Shown here: positions 8,788 through 63,931 of the stretch, piece by piece
How positions within the stretch are numbered: the first letter of the stretch is position 1
Layout: the number at the start of each line of letters is the position of its first letter
Assembly (NCBI GenBank): GCA_051362555.1
Contig: CM120644.1
Span: forward strand, 17,010,534-17,074,533
DNA: 64,000 nucleotides
From: Lingula anatina
Lineage: Eukaryota > Animalia > Brachiopoda
Reading direction: 5' to 3'
Translations under genes and position numbers: made by a program
Notes under the pieces: model-generated
Told to the model about the DNA's origin: nothing
Seen by the model: the letters and a program-made list of their open reading frames with translations, nothing else
The model's database searches: none

Positions 8788-8850
<63 letters not shown>

Positions 8851-18796: not shown

Positions 18797-18885
<89 letters not shown>

Positions 18886-28544: not shown

Positions 28545-28770
28545 TTAATCACGACGGAGCGAGATCCACTCATTGGCCACTTGAAGTTTAGATGTCAGCT
28601 GTCGCACCTGATCTCGCAAAACCTCGTTCTCGTCTCGAAGTTGACCAACCGTGGGTGTGTCTTTTGGTTCTGTTTTAAAGAAAGATATATATTAACTGAA
28701 AATAACAAGTATATCCAAAATAATTCTGGGTGCAGTTTTTAGTGAAAAACGTGTTCATAGTGTACTGATT

Positions 28771-28801
<31 letters not shown>

Positions 28802-31800
28802 ATGAACCGAGATGAAAAAAATACCGTAATTGCCACCAATGTCATGAATTATCCACACGAAAAAAAGAACTAGCAAACTTAAGACAGCAAAGTAAAGCTA
28901 CTATATATAATATGTAAAATGTAAGGCAATTATATATACAAGTCAGAGCGTCAAATACCTTTAATGGCTTGTAAAAGCTTTGGGATCAATTCTTTGTCAT
29001 CGAAATGAATGTATTTCAAGCCTTTTATTTCGGAAGGAATTTCCTCAGGTGAAATGTTCATTACCACCGGAATGAGGACATCTCTTTTCGAATTGAGGGC
29101 TTCTTGCATGGCATACTGCAGCTCTTGTTTACACCACTGACTCTGAACAAAGTTATTGGACAGGAACGCAATGGTATGTTTGGATGCAATGATCGCTTCA
29201 CTTATGGAACTAATCACTTGTGTTCCAGGAATGAGGTCTTCTTTGGCATACCAAAGCTTAAACCCCAGTTTTTTTAGCTGGTGTAGAACTGGTTCTATCG
29301 TTTCTTCATCCTCGCCGCTGTACGCAATGAACGCGTCGTGGCGGTATTGATCCAAGGACAAACTGGGAATATAAAGTGAGTTGTGGCTGTGATAGAAATA
29401 CACACGTGTATATACACACTCTTGTTAAAATATGTATATGCACAATAAGCAAGGGCGCAGGCGTTTATGCTGTTTATGCAACCAAAATTGTAGAAAATGT
29501 TTGTTGTTAACAAAGCAGTAAATGTAAATACTTAAATATCTTTAAAATACCTGAGTGCCTTCAGGTGAATAAAAATAGCCTGACTAATTCTATTACTAGC
29601 TCTAACATTCAAAACTGCACTCACCTAGCATCTTGTTGGTCAGTGGTTGCCGAATGCGACGTGTGCATGTGCCTCGCAGTGACCAAAGTTCTACATCGTT
29701 CTTCAAATTCATCAGGGGTCATGTTTAAAATTTCCGTCACCACCCCAGCATAACAGTCCCCTGCTGCATCTGTATGGGAGAATAATTTAAAGTAGATATC
29801 ATAAGATGTGGAAATAGATGTGATAGGCCTACACATGTAGGTTGTGCACAATCATGAATCATTAGATGCTTTATAATATTTAATAACGACACGCTATTCA
29901 ATATTTTTGGAAATAAAAGCAAATGTTTACATCTTTGATGCAGTAACTTACCCGTTCATAGGCAGACATATAAGACTCACATTCACTGTCACTTTTTAAA
30001 AAATTAAATCTTGACATAAATATTCCATCAGTCTCCACGGTAAGCCTACCATCCACAATACGTGTACACGTACATACACATAAGAACAAATGATAAATCA
30101 TGCATTGTATAATTATATACACTTCTAATCTTACAGTCCAATTATTGACAGTTGTTACAACGATATTATGAAATATAATGTATTTTTATGTATATCAAAA
30201 TAATAAGTAAACATTGCTTTTACTTACCGGAAAGTCGTGGAAGGTTTGCAGACTGTAGCCCGACCCTTAAATCTCTAATGTTTTTATAATTGTTCTTGTT
30301 GACCCAGTCTTTCAGTTCCTGCACCTTTTGGAATTGTGAGACTTCAGGGAAGTTTGTGCTCAGGTTGGTCTGGTTAATAATGGTGTATTCAGCAGAATCT
30401 AATAGTTCAGCAAGGCGCTCCAAAGCCCTGGTCAGTACAAACCTCTGTAAATATGGCATCAATTAAATTATTTTACAGGAACTGGTATATTTGATGAAAC
30501 AGTTATTAAAATATCGTCCATGAACTCAGGACGTGCGCAGTTATAACCCAGGACACTTGACCTCTACACATCTGCCTTCCTATTGAATCATAATTGATCA
30601 TATAATTTAATAATATTGAACCATAATTGATACATAATTTAATATCTAAAAATACACATAAATGTGGTAAAGAATAAACAGCTTTGAAACAATTACTCGA
30701 ATTTATGTATTTTTCAACTGCTGATCGAAACTCTATGTATCATAATCCAATGCTATTCAAGGGCTAAAGGTTGACCACGTTCACACCGCTACATGTATAC
30801 CTGTACCTGTATATCTGGTATTTCAAAACGCCTGAACAACTCTACTACGGCAGCATGATCTTCGTCCTCTGCCACCATTCTTGGTGTCTTTCTCTCCTGT
30901 AATAGCACAACTTGTGTTACTTACTGTATGAGGAGGGAAAATGTAGCCTTTAAGTGCAGTCTAGTGAAATGGTACTTTCCCGTAATACGGTCTTAATATG
31001 ATTTCTTAAAAATGTGTAGCCGTATTCCTGTGCTCGGGCTCTTTAACACTCACCTCAGCCTGTATACTGGTATCCGCCCCGTGTTGGAGGAGAAGCTGAA
31101 CACACTGCGTGTGGCCGCGCTTGGCAGCAATGTAAAGTGATGTCCACCCATTCTGAAAATATGGACAAACAATGTGAGGGAAAATGTAGCCTTTAAGTGC
31201 AGTCTAGTGAAATGGTACTTTCCCGTAATACGGTCTTAACAGGGGCGGATTTAGGCCGTCTTCTGGGTCTTCCGGAAGACGGTCAGATTTTCAAGTTTAC
31301 ATTGACGGGTATCTAATTTTTTCTGTCGGAAGACGGTCAAAAAATAGAGGATGGATCAACAAAATATAATATGGAAGACCGTCAGAAAATATCTCTGGAT
31401 CCGCCCCTGCTTAATATGATTTCTTAAAAATGTGTAGCCGTATTCCTGTGCTCGGGCTCTTTAACACTCACCTCAGCCTGTATACTGGTATCCGCCCCGT
31501 GTTGGAGGAGAAGCTGAACACACTGCGTGTGGCCGCGCTTGGCAGCAATGTAAAGTGATGTCCACCCATTCTGAAAATATGGACAAACAATGTGAGTAAA
31601 GAGATAATCCATGCCGGAGGATCATGTTTATTTCCACTGGGTGTTTAAAGCAATCATTTACAAACAAAATCATTTGGCACAAATTTTCAGTGTGATATGT
31701 ACAGGGTGTAAACAATGTAAATCGATACATGCTTTAAGATAATTAGTTATAACTTAAAAGATCGCTAAGCAGGAGATGTAAACCTGGCACAATAACTTCT

Positions 31801-33420
31801 AATGTACATCGGAAAAGACATGTAGTTATTCGCAAGAGTAGCAATATTACTATGCTTAGACTATTCTGCGCTCACCTCAGTCTGTATATTGGTATCAGCC
31901 CCGTGTTGGAGGAGAAGCCGGACACATTGTGTGAAGCCAAAAAAGGCAGCCCAGTGTAGTGGTGTACCCCCATGCTAAGAATATGGACAAACAATGTGAG
32001 TAAACAGATAAGCCATTTTGCAGAATCAAATTTATTGCCACTGGGTGTTTAAAGCAAACAGTTATAAACCAAAATCGATTAGCAAAAACAAATATCACTG
32101 TGATATATAAAGGATATTAACCAGGGGCGGATTTAGGCCGTCTTCTGGGTCTTCCGGAAGACGGTCAGATTTTCAAGCTTACATTGTCGGGTATCTAATG
32201 TTTTCTGTCGGAAGACGGTCAAAAATGGAGGATGGATCAACAAAGATAATTTGGAAGACTGTCAGAAAATATCTCTGGATCCGCCCCTGTTAACGATGTG
32301 ATTCGATGCATATTTTAAGATGATTTAAGAGAAAGATGCAGAGTATGTAAACCTTGTACAATAACTTTTAATAAACTTCGAGAACGCAAGTGTACCGATA
32401 TTGTTATGCTTAGACTATTCTACACTCACCTCAGGCTGTATACTGGTATCCGCCCCGTGTTGGAGGAGAAGTTGGACACATTGCGTTCGGTTGTGCATGG
32501 CAGCCAGCCAAAGTGGTGTACAGCCACTCTGAAAATACGGACAGTGTGAGTAAACAGGTAATTTATATTTCAGAATCATGCTTATTTCCGTGTGGTGCTT
32601 AAAATCATCAGTTATTATCAAAGTCGGTCAGCAGAAATTCTCACTATGATATGTATAAACAACGTCGTGTCGAAGTATATGTTTGGGACAATAGGCTAAG
32701 AAAAGAATTTATAGTTACCAGTCCCAAATCAAAATTACTAATTGGCAGTAGAAAGTGACATATGGTAACTCGCAATGTGAATTTCGTTATGTGACCTAAT
32801 TAATGATTAAATGTTTATATCATTCTGTTGCTCTACAATACAGGTTGCAAAGTTCGCCTCAAATTCTTGTGGATATGTTTAAACCATTATTATTATAAAT
32901 CAATAGTAGCTTAGGGGTAAACAAAAAAATGAAATGAAAAATGAAACATGGCAAGCCAAAGCATATCGGTGAACGAAATCGTAAACTGCACAATTTATAA
33001 TCTCTTATTGTGGTATGTACACGGAAGAACAGAAACATATGGGTTTCTTGCTACCAAAATTCATGTTTTCCTGTACTGTATATCGATATCTTGTCCATTC
33101 CATAAATGTGAATGTTGTTCACAGCTACTATTATTATGATAATATCATAAAGCCCGTGCAGACAGTATGGAGTGAGGCAGTTACTAAGAGAATGTCCACG
33201 GAATTTGTAATGGGTCGTTTCTACAATAGTGTAAATACTTCAGTTTGTATCCTTACTGTAATGATAAATAGCTAAACGATATCGTGACTAGTGACAGAGT
33301 AATTAACGTTGTTACCTCGTCCTGCTGGACATTGATGTCGCACTCCCTGGCAGTCAGCAGTTCCTTTAAATACTCAATATCTCCATCCAATGCAGCCCAG
33401 AGAAGACTTTCGTCATCCAT
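28545..33420 (-). CDS. ANK-DD-TIR gene 1: ankyrin repeats, death-fold-like domain, TIR, C-terminal coiled coil (10 exons, ~493 aa)
   Basis: Exons 33420-33316 (N-cap), four 99-bp ankyrin exons 32528-32430, 31974-31876, 31570-31472, 31152-31054, C-cap 30896-30807, DD-like 30444-30228, linker 29769-29625, TIR 29362-28959 (HDAFIAYS, EDLIPG, FLSNNFVQSQWCKQEL), coiled coil 28669-28545. The frame is open throughout. The death-fold call rests on helical pattern only. Confidence 0.85.
31240..31409. mobile_element. 170-bp MITE, 5-bp TSD CTTAA
   Basis: TIR CAGGGGCGGAT...ATCCGCCCCTG; the empty site is visible in the adjacent duplicate (cggtcttaatatg at ~30988). Confidence 0.9.
32122..32289. mobile_element. 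Second copy of the CAGGGGCGGAT MITE, 5-bp TSD TTAAC
   Basis: Same TIRs and interior; the homologous intron site of gene 2 (~62990) is empty. Confidence 0.9.
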
Positions 33421-33838
33421 ACTGGTTGGTTGCTATATACCGTGTACCGGTATATATACTATATACCGATATTCTTACGAGGGCAAAGTACGGTATCTCT
33501 GAAATAAGACGCAGTGATCATTACAAGATAGTGATAAAATCCGTTTTACCATATCATCTGTCTAAAAATGAACAGTTCAAGGGCATACATGTATCAAAAA
33601 CAAGGACAGTAGTGTTGGGGGTATGAAACGCATAATTTTTGTTAACTGGATAGGGTTTTACCAAGGAGTTATAACTCCTTGGTTTTACTATCTAAAAGTT
33701 TTTTGAAAGCCAAAGAGGTGGTGTATAGGCTACATGTATTGCTTCTCTCTGTTAGAGTGTGTGTGTGTTTGAGCGTACACGTGTGTGTTCCTCTGTCAAA
33801 GTTTCCTGTGAATAGATATTCCTGGTATAGCTTTCAAT

Positions 33839-33990: not shown

Positions 33991-34635
33991 GTTCCAATCA
34001 CAACAATAATACACAGTAGGCAGATTATATGAGTAGAAATATAGGAACGTGTCGTCTTGTAGGGCCTACATGAATATAGTAATACATATTTACAAAAGCA
34101 GTATTGATTTGCTTTGCCAGAGAGTTTACCGTGGCCTCTACGATGCTTGGGTCGGTGTATTGTGACCGTCCCTTTTCCTTCTTCCTTCATACACTGATTC
34201 ATTCGTAATGCAACTAAAAATCTAATGACTTTTAATATCTTAATTTTCATAACAACATATTCACCCGCAAACAGAAAGTGACGCCAAATTTCCCAGCTCG
34301 ACTACTAAGGGCAAACACTTCCAATCTTTATGATGCATTGCCACGAATTCTTACCCAGATGTTAAAGGACAAGGTTCACGGAAAAATCCATTTCTCGAAT
34401 TTTGAAGATTCAGCACTCAATCTATACACTAGAGGTATGTTTTAATCGATCCCCGCCATTTAAAAATTATAAAAACAATATATTTATAGTGAAAAAGCGT
34501 TTTAGTAAACCTCACCTCAATTCTTACAGTGGGATAGCCCACGTGACACCCATGTGCGCGCGCAGAAAAAAACGCGTGGGGACAAACTCCCTAGCAACCG
34601 CGATCAGTTCATGTATTAGACGTGGAGCAAGTAAC

Positions 34636-35650
34636 ATGCCAAAAACTTGTCGTGAAGCTGGCTGTTGTTCAAGAAAATACAAAGAGAGTTAGAGTCAAGT
34701 TCTCTGTTTTACCTAATGAGAAGTTTAGAAGAGAGAAATGGCTGTCAGCGATAAAAAGAGCAAGAGTAAATAGTGATGGCATTAGGTCTAAACTTTGGTC
34801 GCCGCGAAGAAGTTCTCTAAATGTCTGTTCCCTGCATTTTTCACAGGTTAGAGTCATAAGATGGGTTTTGCATTCTCTTTTACGTAGAATATTATATAAA
34901 TATACCGCATCTGTGGTAATGACAACTGTTGGCATGGGTAAATCAACGATTATATCATTGTCCAAATAATTCGAGACAGTCGTGAAGATTGTGTAGCCTT
35001 TTTTATATTTTTTTTCTTTCTGGAATTTTACAAAACTTGCCAAGGATGACACTAACAGCCGTTGAAAGCTGTTTGTGTCAGATCGACCAGCTTTCTGTTT
35101 ATTATGTCTATTATTGCAAGGTAAGGTGTTCAGGTGCCCACCTGGGTGATAATGATCAGTCATGTCTTTGAGTTAGATCAGTTATACTGTTAGTGTCAGT
35201 TCAATCAGTTTAATGTGAATTATGCAAGGAAAAGTGCTTTAATTGGCGTTCACCTGTGTGATAATGATCAGTGTAAAATAATTTGGGGTTGACACCTTGA
35301 TCGCACAATTACAGACCAGAGCTGTACAAGTGTTAAAAGCCTATCTGAATTTAAATTTGGTTTAAGTAGTTCTTTTGATGTCAAGCCAAAACAAAGCTGG
35401 CGTCAATCACGTGAAATCTTAAGGGCAAGTACTAGTCTTGTAACAATAAAAAGGGCAAATAATGACAAAGTTTTAAAAAATTCACTATGAAAAATGCAAA
35501 TAAGTAAACAAAACAAAAAAATCAGCAATCGTGCACACCCTGATAATGTGCCAAATGTTTCTCCTACTGTACATGTGTACCACGAGTGATCAGGTGATCC
35601 AAAAGGCAGAGATGAGAGTGGATCGGTATGAAAGGATTTTATTAACAAAA
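34636..35650 (+). pseudogene. THAP zinc-finger (transposase N-terminus) remnant
   Basis: MPKTCREAGCC / frameshift / KFSVLP...RREKWLSAIKR...WSP...VCSLHF up to donor 34846; second piece HPDNVPNV...DRYER at ~35525-35650. Frameshifts and stops are present and no DDE core is visible. Confidence 0.75.
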
Positions 35651-36169
35651 TGGATAAATGGTTCACTTTTGAGAACTTTGAACAAAAAAAAAAAAAAAAA
35701 TTGTTCCAATTTCAAATTTGTTTTTATTCTTTTCTTCTCTTCACCAGTTACTTGCGTGGATATATGCAATCCAAATGCACATTTCAAACATCCCGGACAT
35801 TATTTTTATTTGGGATATGTGAATAAAATATTTATCATAAAACTACTTTATTTAACAAAAAATTAAAACAAAAACAAAAGTGATTCATATACGTTATGAT
35901 AATACACACGAAACAAAGGTAATTCTAAGCATCAGATTCATTTTCCTCTTATAAAAATGTAACACTAAGCACTGACATCTTAATACACATTTTGCACTGT
36001 GTGATTGCATTATACTTGAATAAAATGCTGATTTTCCCATGAAAAATAGAAAAAATGAGCGCTAATAGCCATCAACAGACATTGCATAATGTGCTACTGC
36101 ATTATATTTTCCAATCGGATATGCAGTGCATAAAATAATTTCCCATGAAAAAAGCTCTTACATTTGTAT

Positions 36170-36425
36170 ACACTTATTGCACAATGTACGGCTGAGAAAA
36201 AACTGAACGTCTATTTTTATCATGTACACATATATATTGCACAATGTATGGCTGAGAAAAAAAACTGAGCACTTATATTCACACACACATATTGCATAAT
36301 GTCTGACTGAGAAAAAAACTGAGCGCTTACTAGTATATGCAATTGCACAACGTGTGACTGAGACAAAAGTTGACAACTTAAATTCAAACACACATATGTG
36401 GGACTGAAAAAAATGAGCACTTGTA
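36170..36425. repeat. Degenerate ~55-60-bp tandem repeat, about 5 copies
   Basis: Recurring attgcacaatgt..gctgagaaaaaaactgagcactt. Confidence 0.7.
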
Positions 36426-36439
36426 TCCATACACTCTGA

Positions 36440-37276
36440 GTCACAACATGGTATGCTGTCTGGGCCCAACAAGATGTGAAGAAGGTGTGAGCTTCCAGGG
36501 AACGATAGTTTTCCATGGCTTCCAGTGAGTGCAACCCTGAAAGTAATTCCAACATTTTTCCAATTTTAGAGACAGGTAATGAAGTGCTGTTCAATAAAAA
36601 GACACACACTCGCTTGTACAAAAAACAGACAATTTAAAATCTGCCTCTGTATTTCAAATTAACCTTGAAGTAATTAAAAACTCGGTGATCTAGAAACAAA
36701 CAACAAAGGGGCGGTCAATAACAGTACTACATGCAACCAAGGAATTATCTCCTTGATGCAACTTAGTGTCTAATATCACTGATCAGGCAAGAGGATTACT
36801 TTCTTAGTAAGAAATGCATGCTAGTAAGGAATGTAAAATTCAATTTTTTATTCTTTATTCAATTCTTTATTTCCGCTCATCAATTCGTTCAAACTAAGAT
36901 AGGGCGAATAAAAATATTTAGTGTGATATCAGTGCTTGGAACGTTATGATAAACATCGTCATCAGTACGTTTCATTGGAATTTTTAACGCTTCCTTCTCC
37001 ATAAATACTGGTAACTAGATAACCAAACACCTAAAAAAAGCACAAAAAGTAGTGCTGATCTTATTTAGGTAGACTTTTTAAGTATATACTTACTTGGGAC
37101 CTTAACCAAAAAGATGAAAATATCTAGAGTTTACACGTCTGGCGATTGTTTGGGATCATTTTCCACTCATCTGCTGGAAGCTTGTAAGGACAAATATCAT
37201 GCCCATAAAGATCAAGTTTTGCCCTATACCTGTTTAGTGAATCTGGACGAAGTCCTTCCTCATATTCAAACTCCAT
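36440..37276 (-). pseudogene. Decayed transposon accessory ORF (SWIM/YqaJ-associated type N-terminus)
   Basis: Exon 37276-37094 (RYRAKL...CPYKLPADEW / frameshift / NDPKQSPDV*TLDIFIFLVKVP) and exon from 36536 (YRSLEAHTFFTSCWAQTAYH) resemble the YKSLEAYNYF-SGWV family of transposon second ORFs. Confidence 0.6.
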
Positions 37277-40200
37277 TTTCACTCTTGAATTATATGAAAA
37301 TCGCTTTTTTTCGCAGAGCTTTTTGGTCAAGTCTTCATTGTAATACAAGGCGAGATGGCGCCTAACGACCGATTTAGCCCCCACGCGGTTGGTTGCTAGG
37401 GACTATATCCGGTTGTGACGTCATTCCGACTGGGAGAATATGCATAAATGAAGCAACAGATCTGGGTCACGTGGTACTGTGACGACAATCACGATAAAGG
37501 TCTATGAGACTCAACTGAGCTGCATGGTGCAAACAGACAGAATGATTTTGGAAAGTTGTGTTGAACGGAGTTGAGCAATTTTCTTTATGCCTCAGTGTGT
37601 TGCCGTGGGATTCACTAAAATTGCAGCACTCCTTGACTATCTTTCTTTATCTGTGACGGTCTTCCGTGACTAACTTGCTAACTTTGGTGACAATAGTTGC
37701 GATCCTCGCGATCTCGGTCACCTCAGGTGTTTTAGATCATATCAAAAGCTGATAGTCTTTTAGATACTGTCATCAGTTGGCAAGCGTACTAATTGCTGAT
37801 GCATTTTTAAATTCATTGTAGTTGACCAAGAGCTCGTTAACAATAAAACCTGTTAATTATGCACCGCTGCAATTCCCAAGCCAGGTAATAACAGGTATGA
37901 AACTCGTCTTGGTGGGCTTTCATATTTTTCAATATATCTCGTTTATTTCATGGGGTTATTTTATTGGTATTTGTAAATGACGTTATATATCAATACTTAA
38001 ACAATTAAGAGAGAACAGTTTCATTAGCTCTAAATGTATATATTCAAATTCCTGTTTATTATTTTGAAGATTCAGCACTCAATCTATACAATTCAATATT
38101 GGAGGTAATACCCACATATTTTACAAGCTCTTGATAAAAAGAAAAACAAGAATTTGAATTAAACAATTAAGTTCTAACACGGTCGCAAACATTAATAAAA
38201 GAAATTGCTCTCAGGGTATCTTGAAGCTTCCGTGGAAGAAAACGTGTTGAGGAAAAACAGGAAAAAGAGCGTTATATTAAAGAAAAAATGGGAACTGCTG
38301 TAATAAAATGGTTCGTTATCCTAATTCGTTTATGCATTGAGGATTTGTTTCTGAAGAGTATTTCATCTGAAATATTAAATAATTTAAAAGATTGATCATT
38401 TTATAACTTGAAACGCAAATTCTGCGTCAGTACGCAATTTTTTTTTTTTTTTTTTTTTTTGCAAATTTGTAAGCTTATAACACCGTGCTATAAAGATCTA
38501 CTCAAGAAAAAATTTTGCTTGGGTAAAATTGAGTACGGAATGAACTGGAGACACTTGGCTTGTCATTAAGTTTACACGAAAATATGTCAGGTAACTTTAT
38601 ACTGTCTTTGAAAGAGTAAAGATTGAAAGATAATTTTAGACAAACTTTGACGGAGGAAATACCTACGAAAAGTAATGGGCTATTTCGCCAACATCTTGTT
38701 GAACATTTTACACTGCAATTCTATTTAAATAAGCTAAGGAACTAATTGCCAAATTTATACTCTCATCACATAACAGGGGGATAACTAGACCTGCAAAAAT
38801 TGTACGCACATATTTTAAAAAATTACAAGCACATACAGCAAAATGTAGACTTACGCAAAACATGAAGGACAGCGTAATCACAGCAAATGTACCTCATATA
38901 GTAGCTTAATTTCCATTAATAATAAAATCATCATTTAAGTCAAAAATATTCTCGCGATTTAATAACTATTCTAATTTACCCAGAACGGTATATTTATTTT
39001 AAAGGCGGTTAACTGAAATATAGTTTTATGATGTGTGTGAAAATTGCCCATGTCACCCTGTTAGTTTGGAGGTCTAAGCTGGATCAAGTCCATGTTAAAA
39101 TTCCTATGAAGTTATGCAGGAAAATTTCTTCCTTTCTTTCTCTAGCTCCTCGATAAACCTGGTGTTCAGATTTTATCTAGTACCCCCAGGTCTACGGGAG
39201 CTGCTCTTTGTAACTAACGCACAGGTAGATTTTTACCTGAGATAACTGAGGTAAAGCTTAGATAGAGAGTGCGTTCGATACAAGCAAGACAAATTGAATG
39301 CCATTTAACCCTCTAATTAAGAGGTAAAGGAAGTTCCAGTTAGATGGATGATTAAGATAGGACTTGTAAAGGTAACGGGCATTGTTTACCTCAGTTTAAT
39401 AAAAGTATGCAAGACGGAGTGTCAGCGGTTTAATAAAATAAATTGAATTTCACAAATAACATGGACCTCATATGCAATAATCAACATTTCCCTTAACTCA
39501 TTCAAATGCAGTGTTTTATACAACTTGGGATAACCATGATTAAATGCTTGTTAAAGAATTGACTAGACGGGAAATGGTTTTACACAGCTTCACGAGGATT
39601 TAGACCCCTCGGGTAAGAGATTTGAATGAGTATAAACTTTTATCAGAAGCCAGAGAAGTCATCTTACAGGTAGACAATGCAGCTCAGTTTAACAGCTAAG
39701 CACGCTTTATTCTCCAGTGGCTCGATTGTCGTCATCAGACCACGTGACAACGTAGCTCATTTACTCTCAGGCCGAGCAAAAAGGACGTTTTTTAAAGCCA
39801 AAAATTTACAAAATGAGATTTTAATTTGCGTATTTGGATAAAGATATCGTTAGTTGGGCATGTTTTCTGAAGAATATTTTCCGTTCAGGCCATTCTGACG
39901 GCATGGAGCAAATCCTTTAACAACACACTGATATCCAAAGTAGAACTACTTGAATGTCTGTGGTTCGCATCGATGTGGTCGACATGTTACTTCAGAACTT
40001 CGAAAATTTTCAGTAACTTACCGATTTTACAAGCCTCGTGCAAATGGCGACTCTCTATTATTAGAAATGTCGAGGGGAATTCCCCTTTGTTGTTATTGGC
40101 TTCATTTTTTCAACTAAGGCAAACATCTTGTTCAAGGACGTTTATTGTCCAATGGAAGATGCATCTATAGTGTTAATTAATTAGCTTGATATGTTTAGGT

Positions 40201-40939
40201 GCTATTTATTACACATATGTCAGGGTGTCTCCCCCCCCCTCCCCCCCCATCCACACTCAGCTTGCAAGGTACCCCCTTCTACTCCTTTTCATATAATACA
40301 CCTGTTACGGAGTTTATGGGCTTCGTAACTATTGATAAAAGGAGTCAGTTTGTAGAATATACTTTGTTTTATTTCCGAGTGCAGTTTACAAGACTTCCAT
40401 GTGCTAACCTCAACCCTTTAAGTCACCACTCTTACTAGTTGTTGACCCTCTGCTCTAGCACTTCAGCTTTTTGGAAATTATCCAACTTTTCAATAAATTT
40501 CAGATATATTTATATTATAATAAATGGTGTACCGTGTGCAAATACATCAGTTCCGTGTGCATTTTACCATATATGGTCAGAATTACTTTACTTATTGAAC
40601 AATGCTGATTGCGTGGACAATACGTGAAATCATCAAACCTAAATGCTGGATTACATGAGATTGGTTATACAGATCATGTACGATATGCAGCTAATATCTT
40701 TACCTTATTATGTATAAAGTGATGCAGGAGGCAGGTCATTGTTTTTGCTTAGGTATCGATGTCCAAATTTGCCTTACAAATTGTCACGCTTCACAGATAA
40801 AACATGACTTTACACGTTAAATCCACAGACTATCATGCGGTGCACAATACAGTGCACAGGGTCAGAAAGTACTCAGTATACCGAAGAGGGGTTTACCAAA
40901 ATTATTATTTCAAATGTTATGTTACCCCGTGACACACCG

Positions 40940-41777: not shown

Positions 41778-41808
<31 letters not shown>

Positions 41809-45570: not shown

Positions 45571-45606
<36 letters not shown>

Positions 45607-45880
45607 TTTTAAGTACTCTAAAACTGAAGGGTTTTTAAAAGACATTATTCCACAGACCTCAGACATACCACAACACAATCACCTTTGGATCACTCAAGCT
45701 CTCATAATACATATATACTGCAAAGCAAACCTGTTTTCAACCAAACCACTTGCACTTTTTCTCAATTCATCCCTAAGGGGTATCCACAGGCCAGGGGTAT
45801 CCACTTATATCCCCTTCTAAAAAATGATACACCAAGTAAAACAAGACAAAGCCAAGAAAAGCCTAAAACCCTGGGTCTGT

Positions 45881-45922
<42 letters not shown>

Positions 45923-48129: not shown

Positions 48130-48160
<31 letters not shown>

Positions 48161-49645: not shown

Positions 49646-49676
<31 letters not shown>

Positions 49677-51159: not shown

Positions 51160-51212
<53 letters not shown>

Positions 51213-53213
51213 GTCTCTCGTTAACATTGATATGGTTGACTCGTTACTTTTGAATTTAGTCAAAATATCGGCAATTAAGTCACTTACCGATTTCAAACGC
51301 CCCGTGCAAATGGCGACTCTCTTTTATTAGAAATGACGAGGGGAATTCCCCTTTATTGTTATTGGCGCAACTAACGCGAACATCTAGTTGAAAGCCGTTT
51401 ATCAATTTGTGCATCTATAGTGTTAATAAGCTTGATTTGATACATGCTTTTTGTTATACATACGCCAAGAAGGCAGGGCTATATGACAAACTGAACACAA
51501 TGATAACATAATACATGTGCACTGGCGGATCATGGGACCCCCTCCCCCCCCCCCTCCCCATAACATATTTACGTGCAAACAGAAAGTAACGCCAAATTTC
51601 CCAGTTCGATCACTAAGGACAAACACAGTCAATCTTTACGTTAATTTTAACAGAGATGTTAACAACACACCGATAGCACAAGTTAAACTACTCTCTCTCT
51701 CTCTCTCTCTCTCTCTCATGTCTCTCGTTAACATTGATATGGTTGACTCGTTACTTTTGAATTTCGTCAAAATATCGGCAATTAAGTCATTTACCGATTT
51801 CAAACGCCCCGTGCAAATGGCGACTCTCTTTTATTAGAAATGACGAGGGGAATTCCCCTTTATTGTTATTGACGCAACTAACGCGAACATCTAGTTGAAA
51901 GCCGTTTATCAATTTGTGCATCTATAGTGTTAATAAGCTTGATTTGATACATGCTTTTTGTTATACATACGCCAAGAAGGCAGGGCTATATGACAAACTG
52001 AACACAATGATAACATAATACATGTGCACTGGCGGATCATGGGACCCCCTAACCCCCCCCCCCCCCCCCTCCATAACATATTTACGTGCAAACAGAAAGT
52101 AACGCCAAATTTCCCAGTTCGATCACTAAGGACAAACACAGTCAATCTTTACGTTAATTTTAACAGAGATGTTAACAACACACCGATAGCACAAGTTAAA
52201 CTACTCTCTCTCTCTCTCATGTCTCTCGTTAACATTGATATGGTTGACTCGTTACTTTTGAATTTAGTCAAAATATCGGCAATTAAGTCACTTACCGATT
52301 TCAAACGCCCCGTGCAAATGGCGACTCTCTTTTATTAGAAATGACGAGGGGAATTCCCCTTTATTGTTATTGACGCAACTAACGCGAACATCTAGTTGAA
52401 AGCCGTTTATCAATTTGTGCATCTATAGTGTTAATAAGCTTGATTTGATACATGCTTTTTGTTATACATACGCCAAGAACGCAGGGCTATATGACAAACT
52501 GAACACAATGATAACATAATACATGTGCACTGGCGGATCATGGGACCCCCTCCCCCCCCCCCCCCCCCCCCCCCCCCCCATAACATATTTACGTGCAAAC
52601 AGAAAGTAACGCCAAATTTCCCAGTTCGATCACTAAGGACAAACACAGTCAATCTTTACGTTAATTTTAACAGAGATGTTAACAACACACCGATAGCACA
52701 AGTTAAACTACTCTCTCTCTCTCTCTCTCTCTCATGTCTCTCGTTAACATTGATATGGTTGACTCGTTACTTTTGAATTTCGTCAAAATATCGGCAATTA
52801 AGTCACTTACCGATTTCAAACGCCCCGTGCAAATGGCGACTCTCTTTTATTAGAAATGACGAGGGGAATTCCCCTTTATTGTTATTGACGCAACTATCGC
52901 GAACATATAGTTGAAAGCCGTTTATCAATTTGTGCATCTATAGTGTTAATAAGCTTGATTTGATACATGCTTTTTGTTATACATACGCCAAGAAGGCAGG
53001 GCTATATGACAAACTGAACACAATGATAACATAATACATGTGCACTGGCGGATCATGGGACCCCCTCCCCCCCCCCCTCCCCATAACATATTTACGTGCA
53101 AACAGAAAGTAACGCCAAATTTCCCAGTTCGATCACTAAGGACAAACACAGTCAATCTTTACGTTAATTTTAACAGAGATGTTAACAACACACCGATAGC
53201 ACAAGTTAAACTA

Positions 53214-53244
<31 letters not shown>

Positions 53245-54741
53245 ATGTCTCTCGTTAACATTGATATGGTTGACTCGTTACTTTTGAATTTAGTCAAAAT
53301 ATCGGCAATTAAGTCACTTACCGATTTCAAACGCCCCGTGCAAATGGCGACTCTCTTTTATTAGAAATGACGAGGGGAATTCCCCTTTATTGTTATTGAC
53401 GCAACTAACGCGAACATCTAGTTGAAAGCCGTTTATCAATTTGTGCATCTATAGTGTTAATAAGCTTGATTTGATACATGCTTTTTGTTATACATACGCC
53501 AAGAACGCAGGGCTATATGACAAACTGAACACAATGATAACATAATACATGTGCACTGGCGGATCATGGGACCCCCTAACCCCCCCCCCCCCCCCCCCCC
53601 CCCCCCTCCATAACATATTTACGTGCAAACAGAAAGTAACGCCAAATTTCCCAGTTCGATCACTAAGGACAAACACAGTCAATCTTTACGTTAATTTTAA
53701 CAGAGATGTTAACAACACACCGATAGCACAAGTTAAACTACTCTCTCTCTCTCTCATGTCTCTCGTTAACATTGATATGGTTGACTCGTTACTTTTGAAT
53801 TTCGTCAAAATATCGGCAATTAAGTCACTTACCGATTTCAAACGCCCCGTGCAAATGGCGACTCTCTTTTATTAGAAATGACGAGGGGAATTCCCCTTTA
53901 TTGTTATTGGCGCAACTAACGCGAACATCTAGTTGAAAGCCGTTTATCAATTTGTGCATCTATAGTGTTAATAAGCTTGATTTGATACATGCTTTTTGTT
54001 ATACATACGCCAAGAAGGCAGGGCTATATGACAAACTGAACACAATGATAACATAATACATGTGCACTGGCGGATCATGGGACCCCCCCCCCCCCCCCCC
54101 CCCCATAACATATTTACGTGCAAACAGAAAGTAACGCCAAATTTCCCAGTTCGATCACTAAGGACAAACACAGTCAATCTTTACGTTAATTTTAACAGAG
54201 ATGTTAACAACACACCGATAGCACAAGTTAAACTACTCTCTCTCTCTCTCTCTCTCTCTCATGTCTCTCGTTAACATTGATATGGTAAACTCGTTACTTT
54301 TGAATTTCGTCAAAATATCGGCAATTAAGTCACTTACCGATTTCAAACGCCCCGTGCAAATGGCGACTCTCTTTTATTAGAAATGACGAGGGGAATTCCC
54401 CTTTATTGTTATTGACGCAACTATCGCGAACATATAGTTGAAAGCCGTTTATCAATTTGTGCATCTATAGTGTTAATAAGCTTGATTTGATACATGCTTT
54501 TTGTTATACATACGCCAAGAACGCAGGGCTATATGACAAACTGAACACAATGATAACATAATACATGTGCACTGGCGGATCATGGGACCCCCTCCCCCCC
54601 CCCCCTCCCCATAACATATTTACGTGCAAACAGAAAGTAACGCCAAATTTCCCAGTTCGATCACTAAGGACAAACACAGTCAATCTTTACGTTAATTTTA
54701 ACAGAGATGTTAACAACACACCGATAGCACAAGTTAAACTA

Positions 54742-54778
<37 letters not shown>

Positions 54779-55118
54779 GTCTCTCGTTAACATTGATATG
54801 GTTGACTCGTTACTTTTAAATTTCGTCAAAATATCGGCAATTAAGTCACTTACCGATTTCAAACGTCCCGTGCAAATGGCGACTCTCTTTTATTAGAAAT
54901 GACGAGGGGAATTCCCCTTTATTGTTATTGACGCAACTAACGCGAACATCTAGTTGAAAGCCGTTTATCAATTTGTGCATCTATAGTGTTAATAAGCTTG
55001 ATTTGATACATGCTTTTTGTTATACATACGCCAAGAACGCAGGGCTATATGACAAACTGAACACAATGATAACATAATACATGTGCACTGGCGGATCATG
55101 GGACCCCCCCCCCCCCCC
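46492..55118. repeat. Tandem satellite, 17 monomers of ~507 bp
   Basis: Monomer starts (ataacatatttacgtgc) near 46492, 47006, 47496, 47999, 48521, 49011, 49516, 50025, 50522, 51029, 51560, 52073, 52580, 53083, 53610, 54105, 54611. Monomers are near-identical apart from (CT)n and poly-C lengths and a few diagnostic SNPs. Confidence 0.98.
46779..46790. promoter_or_regulatory. Palindromic kappaB-consensus site GGGGAATTCCCC (first satellite copy; one per monomer, plus 40074, 41562, 42586)
   Basis: Exact match to the GGGRNNYYCC consensus on both strands. The motif is certain; function is not shown. Confidence 0.55.
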
Positions 55119-55406: not shown

Positions 55407-55437
<31 letters not shown>

Positions 55438-57256: not shown

Positions 57257-57709
57257 TTATTGACACTTTGGGCGGAGTTTGGTCGTCAGCTCTCTGATTT
57301 GGTCTCGTAAAAACGCGTTTTCTTCCTGTGCATTCTGAAGCGCAATTCGAAGTTCCCCGTTGGTTGGAGACTCTGATGGACCTGAGGCAAAACAAATAAA
57401 AAATATATAAATATGTAAAACATGGTAAAAAGTTAAAAGAAGAATATACAAAAACATTTTCCCCAATGGGAATCAATTGACATCGACCCATAATGCCAAA
57501 ATTTTAATATCAGAATATAAAAATCTTTAATCACCAGTTATTGAACATATATTTGCCGAACATAGAGAAATATAAAGGGGTCGAACACGCGCTTTTAACT
57601 ATATAGCCTACGGCGTGGGCGGAAGCTGGGGTTGATTGGGGAAAATATGGTGTACTATTTTGAATTATCGTCACCATATAAGCTGTCAAGCCAGCAACTT
57701 GTCTCCGCT

Positions 57710-57743
<34 letters not shown>

Positions 57744-60700
57744 CAACCTAAAATCGAAACACAAGTAGGGCCTACCTTTAATTGTTTGAACCAACTTCGG
57801 TATTAACTCTTTGTCGTCGACTGGAATGTATTTCAGAGGTTTGAACTCATCGGGGATTTGCTCTGGAGGGATATCCATAAGGACTGGAATAACAACATCT
57901 TCTCTTGATTCCACAGCTTTATGCATGGCAAGCTCTCTTTCCTTTGCACACCAGGGGCACTCCATAAAGCTCTTGGACAGAAACACAACGGTGCGCTTTG
58001 ATCCGTAAACCGCTTCACCCATAGAGGTTATGACAGGCCTCCCTGGGTGGAAGTCACGTACCCCATAGCAGCACTGGACTCCCAATTCCTCTAGCTGCTC
58101 TATCACTGGTTCTACGACAGCTTTGTCTTCACTGCTGTGGGCAATAAATGCGTCGTGGCGAAGGGGCTCCATTGAAGAACTGTGGAGTGAAAACATTCTG
58201 TTTCAATGGGATCATTTCAACAAGTGGCGTAAGAAAGTAACTTTCAAAATTCAGAGAACACAAATAAAAACAAAATGCAGGAAAACTGCAGGAAAACAAT
58301 AGGATAAGTTAGAGAAAGTTGCTTATGTAAGTTCCAGTTTCATGGTTTTTCATTCTAATTCCAATGGATGGCTAAAAACATTTACTCTTCCATCCGATCT
58401 TAATATGGCCCTTACTTTATTTCTTGCTGGTTAGTGGTTGCTGAACATGTTATGCACATGTGTCTGGCAGTGATCAGGGTTCTACAAAGTTCTTCAAAGT
58501 CACCTGGGGGCATATCTGAAATATTCTTCACCACTTCAGCATAAAAGTCCCCTGCCGCACCTGTAAGCGAAACTAATCTTTTTTAAAGTGTCAATCGTAA
58601 GGTGCGGAAAGTGATGCAATGGGTTTTGCGCAACCAATCATTAGATGCTTTATAACATATAATTTATTTTTTGAGTGCACGATATAAAAGTCGCTGAAAG
58701 CAAGTGTGCTTTTCATGTACGCCTATGCATAATCAGACATTTGATAACTTCGTTAGCTGCCATCTTTTGTGTAAATTGTAGCCCAAAAAGTCTATCCCTA
58801 TCTTTACAATAAGCCTGCCATCTGCGATATACAAACACGTACATACAAATAAAAAAAAAATGATAGCGTGAAATGTAGAATTATATACACTTCTAATCTT
58901 ACAGTCCAGTAACCGTCGGTTGTTACATTGGTGTTATGGAGTACATGTGTATGGTACTGTTAAATATCTATAATGACATGACTATTACTTACTGGAAAGT
59001 CGCAGAAGGTTTGAATCCTGTAGCCGATCCTTTAGGTCTCTAATGTTTGTATAATTGTTCTTGTTGGCCCAGTCTTTTAGTTCCTGCACTTTTTGGAATT
59101 GTAAGACATCATGGAAGTTTGTGCTCAGGTTGGTCTGGTTAATGATGGTATATTCAGCAGGGTCTAATAGTTCAGCAAGGTGCTCTAAAGTCCTGGTCTG
59201 TACATACCCCTGTAAATATGGCATCAATTAAGTTATTTTACAGGAACTGGTATATTTGATGAAACAGTTATTAAAATATCGTCCATGATTTCAGGACGTG
59301 CGCAGTTATTAGCCTGGACACTTGACCTCTACACATCTGCCTTTCTATTGAATCACAATTGGTTATACCATTAAAAATATATATTGAACCATAATTGGCC
59401 ATATAATTTAATATCTAAAAATAATCTTTAAATGAATACATCTTCTTAATGGTACTCGCGAGGCGATGTAAAAAATACACATAAACGTGGTAAAAAATAA
59501 ACCGCTTTGAAACAAATACTCGAATTTATGTATTTTTCCACAACTGATAGAAACTTTATGTATCATAATCCAGTGCTATTTAAGGGCTAAAAGTTGACCA
59601 CGTTCACACTGCTACATGTTTACCTGTATATCTGGTATTTCAAAACGCCTCAACAGTTCTACTACGGCAGCGTGTTTTTTCTCTTCTGCCACCATTCTTG
59701 GTGTCTTTCCCTCCTGTAATAGCAAAACTTTTGTTACTTACTGGATGAGGAGGGAATTGTAGGATTTAAGTGCAGTCTAGTAAAATGGTGCTTTCCCGTA
59801 ATACGGTCTTAATATGATTTCTGAAAAAGGTGTAGCCATATTCCTGTGCATTGACTCTTTCACATTTACCTTATTCTGTATACTGGAATCCGCCCCGTGT
59901 TGGAGGAGAAGTATTATATACCAATCTGTTACGAACTGATTACGATTAAACCACGAATCCTGAAATTTTTGATTCCTGGCGATTCGTGGGATTCGTGATC
60001 TGTGTGAAATAGGGGCATTAGCGATCTTTCAAGTTATAACTAATGATCTTAAAGCATGTAACGAATTTCATTGTATATACGCTGTACATATTACAGTGAG
60101 AATCTTTGCTTACCGATTTTTTGTTTATAGCTGATTACTTTGAACACCCCGTGGAAATAAACATGATTCTACGGCATGGATTATCTGTTCACTCACATTC
60201 TTTGTCCATATTCTCAGGGTGGGGATACACCACGTTACATGCTTTAAGATCATTAGTTATAACTTGAAAGATCGCTAATGCCCCTATTTCACACAGATCA
60301 CGAATCCCACGAATCGCCAGGAATCAAAAATTTCAGGATTCGTGGTTTAATCGTAATCAGTTCGTGAAGTTCTTAACAGATTGGTATATAATAGTAGTCA
60401 GTTCTTGCACTTCTTGATCAATCGGGAATTCGTGGCAAAAATTTTTAGCTGTTCAAAGTTTTGGCCACAAACTCCCGATTCCAAAAAATCGTAGTGAATG
60501 TCTGGACAATATTCGTGCGATTCAAGCCGAATCCCAGAATATTCGTAACAATATCGCACCTGTATCGTAACTGAATCGGAGAGCGTGTCGAATTAGGAAC
60601 TTCAGAAAAGACATAATGCATATTTTTAAAGATGATTACTTACAACTAATGAGAAAGATCGCTATGCAGAATATGTAAACCATGTACAATAACTTCTCAC

Positions 60701-63700
60701 TTCGGGAAAGATATGTAGTTAAACACAAGTGTAGCGATATTCTACACTCACCCTAGCCTGTATACTGGCATTCGCCCCGTGTTGGAGGAGAAGCTGGACA
60801 TATTGCGTGTGGCCGCGCCGGGCAGCCAAATGAAGTGGTGTCCACCTATCCTGAAAATATGGACAAACAATGTGAGCAAACAGATAATCTATGCCGTAGA
60901 ATCATGTTTATTTCCACTGGGTGTTTAAAGTAATCAGCTATAAACAAAAAATTGGTAAGCAAAGATTCTCACTGTAATATGTACAGAGTATAAACAATAA
61001 GATTCGACACATGCTTTCAGATAATTAGTTATAACTTGAAAGATCGCTAAGCAGGATATGTAAACCTGGCACAATAACTTCTAATGTACATCGGAAAGAC
61101 ATGTAGTTTTAGGCAAGAGTAGCAATATCGCTATGCTATGAATATTCTACACTCACCTTATTCTGTATACTGGTATCTGCCCCATGTTGGAGGAGAAGCT
61201 GAACACATTGTGAGCGGCCATTGTAGGTACATGTAGCAAGGTGAAGTGGTGTATCCCCACCCTGAGAATATGGACAAAGAATGTGAGTGAACAGATAATC
61301 CATGCCGTAGAATCATGTTTATTTCCACGGGGTGTTCAAAGTAATCAGCTATAAACAAAAAATCGGTAAGCAAAGATTCTCACTGTAATATGTACAGCGT
61401 ATATACAATGAAATTCGTTACATGCTTTAAGATCATTAGTTATAACTTGAAAGATCGCTAATGCCCCTATTTCACACAGATCACGAATCCCACGAATCGC
61501 CAGGAATCAAAAATTTCAGGATTCGTGGTTTAATCGTAATCAGTTCGTGAAGTTCTTAACAGATTGGTATATAATAGTAGTCAGTTCTTGCACTTCTTGA
61601 TCAATCGGGAATTCGTGGCAAAAATTTTTAGCTGTTCAAAGTTTTGGCCACGAACTCCCGATTCCAAAAAATCGTAGTGAATGTCTGGACAATATTCGTG
61701 CGATTCAAGCCGAATCCCAGAATATTCGTAACAATATCGCACCTGTATCGTAACTGAATCGGAGAGCGTGTCGAATTAGGAACTTCAGAAAAGACATAAT
61801 GCATATTTTTAAAGATGATTACTTACAACTAATGAGAAAGATCGCTATGCAGAATATGTAAACCATGTACAATAACTTCTCACTTCGGGAAAGATATGTA
61901 GTTAAACACAAGTGTAGCGATATTCTACACTCACCCTAGCCTGTATACTGGCATTCGCCCCGTGTTGGAGGAGAAGCTGGACACATTGCGTGTGGCCGCG
62001 CCGGGCAGCCAAATGAAGTGGTGTCCACCCATCCTGAAAATATGGACAAACAATGTGAGCAAACAGATAATCCATGCCGTAGAATCATGTTTATTTCCAC
62101 TGGGTGTTTAAAGTAATCAGCTATAAACAAAAAATTGGTAAGCAAAGATTCTCACTGTAATGTGTACAGAGTATAAACAATAAGATTCGACACATGCTTT
62201 CAGATAATTAGTTATAACTTGAAAGATCGCTAAGCAGGATATGTAAACCTGGCACAATAACTTCTAATGTACATCGGAAAGACATGTAGTTTTAGGCAAG
62301 AGTAGCAATATTGCTATGCTAAGAATATTCTACACTCACCTTATTCTGTATACTGGTATCTGCCCCATGTTGGAGGAGAAGCTGAACACATTGTGAGCGG
62401 CCTTTGTAGGTACATGTAGCAAGGTGAAGTGGTGTATCCCCATCCTGAGAATATGGACAAACAATGTGAGTAAACAGATAATTCATGCCGTAGAATCATG
62501 TTTATTTCCACTGGGTGTTTAAAATAATCAGCTATAAACAAAAAATTGGTAAGCAAAGATTCTCACTGTGATTTGTACAGGGTATTAACAGTGTGAATCT
62601 ATACATGATTTAAGATCATTAGTCATAACTTGAAAGATCGCTAAGCAGATATGTAAACCTGGCACAATAACTTCTAATGTACATCGGAAAGACATGTAGT
62701 TTTAGGCAAGAGTAGCAATATTGCTATGCTAAGAATATTCTACACTCACCTTATTCTGTATACTGGTATCTGCCCCGTGTTGGAGGAGAAGCTGAATACA
62801 CTGCGTGGGGCCGCCCGCGACAGCCAGGTGAAGTGGTGTCCACCCATCCTGAGAATATGGACAAACAATGTGAGTAAACTGATAATCCATGTTACAGAAT
62901 CAAATTTATTTCCACTGGGTGTTTAAAGCAATCAGTTATAAACCAAAATCGATTAGCAAAAACAAATATCACTGTGATATAGAAAAGATATTTACGACGT
63001 GATTTGATACATATTTTAAGATGATTACTTATAATTTAAGAGAATGATCGCTAAGCAGAATACGTAAACCTTGTACAATAACTTCTAATAAACTTCGAGA
63101 AATATATGTAGTTATACGCAGGTGTAGCGATATTGCTATGCTAAGACTATTCTACACTCCTCACACTGATATCCGGCCCGTTTTGGAGGAGATGCACAAG
63201 ATATTCTGTGTTGCCGTTCCTGGCAGCCGAGTGAAGTTGTGTCCACCCATTCTGAGAATATGGACAAACAGTGTGAGTAAACAGGTAATTTAGGTTGCAG
63301 AAACATGCTTATTTTCATGCGGGGTTTAAAATTAACAAATTAACAAAAATCGGTCAGCAGAAATTCGCACTATCATGCAGGGGCGGATTTAGGCCATCTT
63401 CTGGGTCTTCCAGAAGACGGTCAGATTTTCAAGTTTACATAGATAGGTATGTAATTTTTTCAGGCTGAAGACGGTCAAAACTGGAGGATGGATCAACAAA
63501 GATAATTTGGAAGACTGTCAGAAAAAAAGCTCTTGATACGCCCCTGCTATGATATGTATAAACAATGTCGTGTCGAAAAACATGTTTGGGACAATAGTCT
63601 TGAAGAATAAGGTTTTAAGAAAAGAATTAACAGTTACCAGAAGGAAGAGGAGCAGTAAGGAGTGAGGCAGTTACTTAGAGAATGTCCACGGAATTTGCAA

Positions 63701-63931
63701 TGGGTCGTTTCTACATAAGTGTAAATACTTCAGTTTGTATCCTTACTGTAACAATAAATAGCTAAACGATACCGTGACTAGTGACAGAGTAATTAACGTT
63801 GTTACCCAGTCCTGGACATTGATGTCGCACTCCCTGGCAGTCAGCAGTTCCTGTAAACTCTCAATATCTCCATCACATGCAGCGAGGAGAAGCTTTTCGT
63901 CAGGCTTACTGGTTGTACCGAGTATATCCAT
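57257..63931 (-). CDS. ANK-DD-TIR gene 2, paralog of gene 1 (about 566 aa if the degenerate exon is included)
   Basis: Exons 63931-63806, degenerate 63251-63165, ankyrin exons 62848-62750, 62444-62340, 62033-61935, 61261-61157, 60850-60752, (broken exon 59870-59911 skipped), 59713-59624, 59209-58993, 58560-58416, TIR 58179-57776 (HDAFIAHS, RDFHPG, FLSKSFMECPWCAKE), 57381-57257. The last five exons have the same lengths as in gene 1 (90, 217, 145, 404, 125). Confidence 0.82.
60234..62599. repeat. Direct tandem duplication with 1183-bp period, two ankyrin exons per unit
   Basis: Exon donors at 60752/61935 and 61157/62340 are both 1183 bp apart; introns are near-identical, including a truncated repeat starting gcccctatttcacacagatcacgaat. 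Confidence 0.9.
63378..63546. mobile_element. Third, more diverged copy of the CAGGGGCGGAT MITE
   Basis: Same TIRs and interior; the homologous site in gene 1 (cactatgatatg, ~32642) is empty. Confidence 0.85.

Follow-up and report, generated by a model that had tools for sequence, protein, structure and literature searches.

The brachiopod Lingula anatina carries two related genes, here called gene 1 and gene 2, whose proteins join an array of ankyrin repeats to a middle domain, a TIR domain and a coiled coil. Both were found in a 64,000-nucleotide stretch of contig CM120644.1 (assembly GCA_051362555.1, positions 17,010,534 to 17,074,533), which we call the window and number from its first letter. 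The sequence was scanned for exons (an open frame between AG and GT), which were then spliced by coordinates, and this placed both genes on the minus strand, with an open reading frame of 493 residues in gene 1 and 537 residues in gene 2.

Two ankyrin-TIR genes and the turnover of their repeat exons

The exons of gene 1 code, in order, for an N-cap, four ankyrin repeats of 99 nucleotides each, a C-cap, the middle domain (two exons), the TIR domain and the coiled coil. Gene 2 follows the same plan with five intact ankyrin exons (two of 105 nucleotides, the rest of 99), one degenerate and one broken. Pfam matched Ank and TIR in both genes. The following features were identified.

33316-33689, minus strand: gene 1 first exon, with an unspliced 5' untranslated region (to about 33689) and the N-cap ankyrin repeat, ATG at 33420; a contig of run X9 covers 33325-33689 with 0 differences
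32430-32528, minus strand: gene 1 ankyrin exon A1, 99 nucleotides with phase 0 on either side, joined to the N-cap by splicing in X9; not in the RefSeq model XP_013402582 (P0004)
31876-31974, minus strand: gene 1 ankyrin exon A2; identical peptide in P0004
31472-31570, minus strand: gene 1 ankyrin exon A3, from the exon scan and splicing by coordinates
31054-31152, minus strand: gene 1 ankyrin exon A4, with the same sequence as A3
30807-30896, minus strand: gene 1 C-cap exon, from splicing by coordinates
29625-30444, minus strand: gene 1 predicted death-fold domain in two exons (30444-30228 and 29769-29625), without a helix-3 segment, from profile and fold tests
28959-29362, minus strand: gene 1 TIR exon (Pfam), TLR-like, with BB-loop PG and alphaC WCxxE; both flanking introns spliced CT..AC
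28545-28669, minus strand: gene 1 terminal exon, coding for a leucine-zipper-like coiled coil and the stop codon; HALZ/bZIP_2 scored below cut-off, and the paralogue P0018 has a long helix in its model
63806-63931, minus strand: gene 2 N-cap exon, from splicing by coordinates; its 5' untranslated region extends past the window edge
63165-63251, minus strand: gene 2 degenerate ankyrin exon B0, 87 nucleotides, open, phase 0, positional partner of A1
60752-62848, minus strand: gene 2 intact ankyrin exons B1 to B5 (62848-62750, 62444-62340, 62033-61935, 61261-61157, 60850-60752)
59851-60233, minus strand: gene 2 broken last repeat, a 3' half exon (59911-59851) with its donor, behind an inverted duplication at 59912-60233
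58416-59713, minus strand: gene 2 C-cap and predicted death-fold exons (59713-59624, 59209-58993, 58560-58416)
57257-58179, minus strand: gene 2 TIR exon (58179-57776), of a TIR clade unlike that of gene 1, and coiled-coil exon (57381-57257)

The nine repeat exons listed in the original prediction all lie where it had put them, with AG and GT ends and phase 0 on both sides, and the scan returned the same exon counts for the two genes. Comparison of the introns around the ankyrin exons also bore out that they are homologous. As 99-nucleotide exons are frequent in animal ankyrin genes, the exon plan itself would be ordinary. No hydrophobic segment is present in either protein (peak 19-residue hydropathy 1.27 in gene 1 and 0.96 in gene 2), which fits the cytosolic location proposed earlier.

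Recent duplication and loss of ankyrin exons are both present in the window. A4 arose by a 246-bp tandem duplication. Of the two copies, just the first contains a miniature inverted-repeat transposable element (MITE), a difference that speaks against A3 and A4 being an assembly echo. In gene 2, B2-B3 and B4-B5 form a 1229-bp duplication with 97.6% identity. On the side of loss, B0 lacks 12 nucleotides before its donor while its frame stays open in phase 0, and the acceptor and 5' half of the broken repeat were removed by the inverted duplication. Since one repeat is one phase-0 exon, gain or loss of a repeat leaves the frame intact. Of the reshuffling that had been suggested, exon copy-number change is visible in the window, but exon-level conversion found no support: in an approximately unbiased (AU) test the exon alignment does not reject the intron tree (p=0.106, 0.109). 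The MITE is a high-copy element of about 170 bp with ends CAGGGGCG..CGCCCCTG, and it has three insertions in ankyrin-region introns of both genes, at 31240-31410, 32120-32290 and 63377-63550.

Repeats, signalling domains and relatives

Sequence entropy was calculated for 31 unique family repeats of the 33-residue pattern, with repeats that carry insertions excluded. Positions 17-29 had 0-0.64 bits, compared with up to 3.2 bits in generic ankyrin repeats, while positions 2, 3, 5, 13 and 14 had 2.6-3.4 bits, about equal to generic repeats. The variable positions therefore vary in generic repeats too, and the unusual feature is the frozen helix-2 half. This half had an identity of 0.83-0.91 in seven of eight Lingula proteins and reached 0.8 or more in 2 of 67 controls; mean identity over the whole repeat was 0.73 and 0.74. 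The positions randomised in designed ankyrin repeat proteins (DARPins) we take to be 2, 3, 5, 13, 14 and 33. Only five of these six vary in the family, a correction to the original prediction; position 33 is nearly fixed as Q, and positions 1, 10 and 16 vary besides. Six randomised positions per repeat are described for DARPins (PMC9611651, in part), and among PDB sequences a DARPin was the best match to a family array.

Selection was analysed with two classes of sites, binding face and framework, that had been named before the tests. A codon model on eight exons (identical A4 and degenerate B0 left out, three codons masked in the two longer exons) gave an omega of 4.2-4.6 at the binding face vs 0.69-0.76 in the framework (p<1e-4), and a star tree of six exons gave a binding-face omega of 3.9, or 9.0 with a free class rate (p=0.013). 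The mean non-synonymous divergence (pN) at binding-face codons was 0.385, vs 0.171 in the upstream intron and a synonymous divergence (pS) of 0.225 in the framework. A2 and B1, which are positional partners by the intron tree (support 99/98), differ at 24 of 99 exon sites vs 19 of 260 flanking intron sites (p=3.5e-5). The codons of the turn and the helix-1 tip thus change faster than synonymous and intron sites, and the excess of amino-acid change expected at the surface positions was found.

Reads were mapped from 6 of 21 listed runs, on the gene 1 side of the window. The stranded runs X12 and X15 assign the RNA to the minus strand. Splicing of the gene 1 TIR/coil and death/TIR introns, CT..AC, was seen in X18 and X7, and X9 had the joint 32528-33316 between the N-cap and A1, also CT..AC. 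X7 and X9 are recorded as 'DNA?' yet hold spliced joints, and they share a study with the best DNA run, so that they may not be independent of the window. The spliced transcripts on which the original prediction depended are present at these three introns. The fixed half of A1 had a depth of 13,875 in X7 and 16,079 in X9 (35 and 29 contigs), while the variable half had 9 and 110. In X18, 148 reads showed a joint that re-enters the same fixed half after unmatched letters, which means tandem repeats in the mRNA, and the loose read ends agreed only at 0.72-0.83. The disagreeing ends and the depth of the fixed half together point to many different variable halves on one framework in the RNA, where the fixed-half reads include transcripts of sister ankyrin-death genes. 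No exon-skipping joint specific to gene 1 was seen in the splice-joint tables, which hold the best 15 of 191 and the best 15 of 25 joints.

The Pfam scan gave no death-domain match in gene 1 or gene 2, and a protein atlas search gave no usable match for the middle domain. However, two sister proteins, P0011 and P0017, have a Pfam Death domain at the corresponding place, and the family profile matches this region of P0017 and P0011 with E 2e-6 and 2e-4; hhalign of the family against the sister death domain gave 90.6%, and 0.2% for the reversed control. The AlphaFold model of the middle stretch of P0004, which is identical to gene 1 there, had a predicted local distance difference test score (pLDDT) of 83, and all of the first 14 rows returned by Foldseek were death domains. 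VIA-align to the FADD death domain aligned 89 residues with Z 10.1 and a root-mean-square deviation of 2.9, where helical models with Z below about 13 may share merely a common arrangement. At the place of helix 3 there is a gap of about 10 residues relative to the sister death domains, modelled as coil with pLDDT<50. The profile match and the fold comparison support a middle domain that, as modelled, would be a death fold lacking the helix-3 segment, which agrees with the death fold named originally. Helix 3 belongs to the usual death-domain assembly surfaces, and its absence makes a Myddosome role doubtful. In the full model of P0018 the C-cap helix continues directly into the death fold, and a disordered linker precedes the TIR domain, with a 31-residue helix at the chain end.

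The best matches of the TIR domain were TLR15, TLR2 and TLR1 (E 6e-15 to 3e-12), and MyD88 followed with E 7e-9. With this TLR-like TIR and a death fold short of about 10 helix-3 residues, the MyD88-type pair of the original prediction could not be upheld. The BB-loop PG and the alphaC glutamate are retained, the latter in WCKQE at 394 (gene 1) and WCAKE at 438 (gene 2), so the WCxxE glutamate noted earlier is indeed in both genes. Of 61 animal TIRs with the glutamate that were assayed in a preprint (bioRxiv 10.64898/2026.04.20.719644, in part), 12 were active and 49 inactive. The TIR of a Lingula TLR produced cyclic ADP-ribose (cADPR) there, in dependence on its glutamate, and the TIR of TLR2 bears WCxxE yet was inactive in the same assay. 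Prediction of a homodimer of the death-TIR-zipper fragment, run without an alignment, scored 0.02, which is no evidence either way.

The two halves of the genes gave conflicting trees. In the death-domain tree gene 2 groups with gene 1 (99/99), while in the TIR tree it groups with P0018, P0021 and P0030 (100/99), and each domain alignment rejects the grouping of the other (AU p=0.0008 and 0.0002, with groups taken from the other domain's tree and the long-branched P0030 left out). When the two genes are compared, DNA identity stays at 0.89-0.91 up to and including the first death exon and then falls to 0.73 and 0.63-0.67. The 5' half (ankyrins and first death exon) and the 3' half (TIR and zipper) therefore have different histories, and sensor and signalling halves were reassorted between paralogues.

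A TIR search with 240 candidates yielded 6 proteins, every one of them from Lingula anatina. A hidden Markov model of the middle domain matched 23 of 278 fetched proteins, all from Lingula or the window, which correspond to about 17 family loci and 2 sister ankyrin-death loci; six family loci lie on one 212-kb scaffold, and some may be uncollapsed alleles. The number of repeats ranges from 0-1 to about 14 (P0132). All 44 repeats from 10 RefSeq proteins are unique, and 20 of the 44 carry one identical 13-residue framework. XP_013402582 equals gene 1 letter for letter in the N-cap, A2, one A3/A4, the C-cap and both middle exons, and 103 of 120 residues are identical in the TIR; it lacks A1 and the second A3/A4. 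The RefSeq models of the family, which include XP_013402582, XP_023932464, XP_013378974/6 and XP_013388856, are titled 'uncharacterized' or after unrelated ankyrin proteins, and the death fold is unannotated in them. No match that combines a death-like domain with TIR came from any other organism in the best 150 of 1.84 billion representatives, in which brachiopod and phoronid relatives may be poorly sampled. We did not find the family described in the literature searched, although the Gerdol 2017/2018 surveys and the supplements of the TIR preprint may include models of it; the portions of PMC8195603, PMC6321704, PMC5094078, PMC11463336 and PMC5135030 that were available contain no description of it.

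The sister Lingula family (P0011/P0131, P0017) has the same ankyrin framework, 8-11 repeats as read, a complete death domain and no TIR, and one of its loci has at least four annotated isoforms; its proteins are possible partners or ancestors of the ankyrin-TIR family. The TIRs of P0007, P0133, P0136, P0138 and P0139 are without the alphaC WCxxE motif, and P0136 is a tandem TIR-zipper-TIR-zipper protein. These members may be decoys.

Sequences between and around the genes

Three further features lie between gene 1 and gene 2.

46480-55100, no strand assigned: 17 near-identical tandem copies of a unit of about 505 bp, each with the kappaB-like palindrome GGGGAATTCCCC
39917-42825, no strand assigned: the unit in three older copies with 78-88% identity, all carrying the palindrome; the third copy has its tail resuming at 34365-34158
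34366-39916, no strand assigned: Kolobok-like insertion, flanked by TTAA and with AG..CT termini, which holds a THAP remnant at 34595-34966 on the plus strand; it splits the unit nearest gene 1

The unit is thus present in 20 copies, each with a perfect palindrome; like the size of the family and the exchange of its halves, this array was absent from the original prediction. The 10-base core of the palindrome equals a kappaB probe (PMC5700166, in part). In shuffling trials of the unit, 1.5% gave any kappaB consensus and 0.02% gave this core, figures to be read with the motif having been noticed after the fact and all copies of the unit descending from one. Without the 5.5-kb insertion, the nearest kappaB site would lie about 840 bases upstream of the observed 5' end of gene 1. 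The young 17-copy array has 11 variable columns and a loose three-unit higher-order pattern, and one unit copy has an extra C. We also considered the unit as a repeated promoter and first exon of gene 1, which was rejected by the X9 contig running unspliced past the supposed acceptor to 33689; the unit copies had almost no RNA depth. In the DNA run X3 the depth was 136 on the young unit vs 93-113 in adjoining single-copy bins. The tool warns that such a depth is not a copy number, but the figure gives a hint that the animal of X3 has the 17-copy array in a short form or not at all.

The THAP domain occurs in Kolobok. No DDE transposase showed in the three frames of the insertion that were scanned, where the only coding trace was the THAP remnant (E 2.7e-6). 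A TTAA duplication and RR..YY ends, which are given as Kolobok criteria (PMC9587614, in part), are both found in the insertion. Parts of it are high-copy in X3.

A minus-strand RNA of about 2.5 kb, which is unannotated and seems to be unspliced, covers about 43300 to 45763. Its reads pile up at the 5' end, 45763, and this point lies about 1 kb downstream of where the array has its last kappaB site. The longest ATG frame of this RNA is 60 residues, and it is a candidate long non-coding RNA. Rfam gave 0 matches in 28000-64000. Farther away lie a minus-strand gene for Mediator subunit 24 at about 5900-16000 (Pfam Med24_N) and a plus-strand RhoGAP gene at 18600-24800 with a weak Pfam match, presumably RacGAP1.

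Proposed variable intracellular sensors and other explanations

We consider that the two genes belong to a Lingula family of soluble ankyrin-array, death-fold, TIR and leucine-zipper proteins which are probably variable intracellular immune sensors without a NOD. The frozen framework would keep each repeat stackable, and its homology would promote unequal crossing-over and conversion. Proteins of microbes or viruses would be bound in the variable groove, and ligand binding would cluster the TLR-like TIRs with help from the zipper; the separate histories of the two halves mean that sensors are re-paired with outputs. Recruitment of MyD88 or TLR TIRs toward NF-kB by the clustered TIRs has a slightly better than even chance in our estimate, and production of cADPR, instead or in addition, is less likely than not. 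For the death fold without helix 3, a rigid spacer or an altered oligomerisation surface is more likely than a Myddosome seed. It is possible, with the odds somewhat against it, that the kappaB palindromes upstream make gene 1 NF-kB-inducible. More speculative is a germline repertoire of natural DARPin-like receptors without a NOD switch, in which single-exon modules would be copied, swapped and diversified on one face, TIR outputs re-paired just after the first death exon, repeat number specific to the individual, and inducibility tuned by a copy-number-variable array of NF-kB sites; we regard this as rather unlikely in full.

Several observations weigh against the sensor reading. Gene 1 is weakly expressed, and most mapped reads are 90-95% alike and come from paralogues or alleles. 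None of the death domains returned by Foldseek reached E<=0.001, and the VIA-align score falls in the range where the caution on helical models applies. Six to eight short exons underlie the omega values, which conversion and multi-base changes can raise artificially, and the framework omega of about 0.6-0.8 means weak constraint, with several members broken or partial (P0005, P0010, P0134 and P0136 among the partial ones). The exon alignment does not reject the intron clades and so gives no support to exon-level conversion. The kappaB site was not specially conserved, with no excess over the unit background (longest-run permutation P 0.8). The two internal repeats of P0004 vs four in gene 1 may reflect exon skipping or a gene-model or assembly error; repeat arrays of this sort misassemble from short reads (PMC12222747, in part).

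If the array senses and the TIR cleaves nicotinamide adenine dinucleotide (NAD+) to cADPR, or drains NAD+ by a SARM1-like logic, no MyD88 step would be involved. This has its sensor step in common with the sensor reading, and the catalytic-position glutamate in both genes, the cADPR-making Lingula TLR TIR and the 12 active TIRs favour it; but the 49 inactive TIRs, TLR2 included (same preprint, in part), and the altered or lost motif in several family members make it unlikely. A lower probability is given to relaxed birth-and-death, by which slippage and conversion of tandem exons are neutral, the shared framework reflects nothing but the young age of the copies, and there is no special recognition role. 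The broken and degenerate exons of gene 2, the partial members, the framework omega, the low expression of gene 1 and the loss of the alphaC motif in several TIRs would all be expected then, yet change is focused at sites named beforehand and exceeds intron and synonymous divergence, the frames are open over 493 and 537 residues, the transcripts are spliced, and the 44 RefSeq repeats all differ while the framework is common across loci.

Another explanation, about as improbable as neutral turnover or a little more so, is an NF-kB-induced feedback inhibitor or decoy, in which the TLR-like TIR would tie up MyD88 or the numerous TLRs of Lingula without signalling. A fixed host target should conserve the groove, whereas the groove diversifies, and the array finds its best sequence matches in DARPins and ankyrin-1 rather than in IkB. 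Still, twenty kappaB palindromes lie upstream of gene 1, the death fold without helix 3 may fail to seed signalling, the IkB-like tail of p100/p105 resembles the ankyrin-death half, and the p100/p105 death domains appear in the fold list, though low (Z 4.9). Least probable of all, we think, is that exon skipping within one animal, in the manner of Dscam, is the main source of diversity in place of germline change. Phase 0 permits any skip, the gene 1 N-cap joins A1 in X9 and A2 in the RefSeq model, and among RefSeq isoforms exactly three repeats separate P0006 from P0009, and a repeat swap separates P0011 from P0131. These isoforms are predicted models, however, the arrays are short (1 to about 14 repeats) and would give few combinations, and the best joints held no skipping unique to gene 1.

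The sensor reading can be compared with known systems. In the ANK/TPR/WD arrays of fungal NLRs from Podospora the repeats are highly conserved, with a mark of 85% identity over 100 residues (Dyrka et al. 2014, PMC4986451, in part). Shared with these arrays (PMC4986451, and het-d/het-e in PMC12222747, both in part) are the homogenised framework, positive selection on the concave ankyrin face, changes in repeat number and chimeric reassortment of domains between paralogues. However, the Lingula whole-repeat identity of 73-74% is under that mark, which is a further point against our reading; fungal NLRs have a NACHT/NB-ARC core, of which Pfam found none in the exons and 13 relatives, and in Lingula, an animal, the sensor is N-terminal, the effector C-terminal and each repeat its own exon. 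With the ROCO LRR and NB-ARC-TPR receptors of brown algae (PMC11378527, in part, and Zambounis 2012 as cited there) the family shares one repeat per exon, exon duplication and shuffling, and diversifying selection; alternative splicing is proposed there, and an immune role is inferred in both. It differs from them by ankyrin instead of LRR/TPR and by death fold, TIR and zipper instead of ROC-COR/NB-ARC, and no ROC-COR or NB-ARC core was found in Pfam scans of the exons and 13 relatives.

MyD88 likewise has a death fold, then a linker, then a TIR, but the Lingula genes add the ankyrin array and the zipper, lack the helix-3 segment, have a TIR nearer to those of TLRs with the alphaC glutamate, and form a fast-evolving multi-gene family. 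The missing helix-3 segment and the TLR-like TIR argue that they are not MyD88. DARPins (PMC9611651, PMC8683736, both in part) share the N-cap, self-compatible internal repeats, C-cap, constant framework and variable turn and helix-1 residues, while the Lingula arrays are natural, with position 33 fixed, 10 and 16 variable, and 2-residue loop insertions. The ecTIR-DC proteins are also invertebrate cytosolic TIR proteins, proposed as adaptors or regulators, but they are described as widespread and conserved (Gerdol et al. 2017, 2018, as cited in PMC6321704, in part), whereas matches to the Lingula family in the best 150 representatives were confined to Lingula. The family evolves like fungal NLR ankyrin arrays and brown-algal receptors, but it belongs to neither and is not a MyD88.

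How invertebrates diversify recognition within cells is an open question, and the known routes to intracellular recognition diversity in animals are mostly LRR-based NLR and TLR expansions. If the sensor reading is true, the Lingula family would be a third animal route, convergent with fungal ankyrin NLRs and brown-algal receptors and with a direct connection to a death fold and a TIR of the TLR type. As small, soluble proteins with defined variable sites, its members are open to ligand pull-downs, repeat swaps and TIR assays. The family would also be a natural counterpart to DARPin design, in which evolution varies positions 2, 3, 5, 10, 13, 14 and 16 and freezes others.

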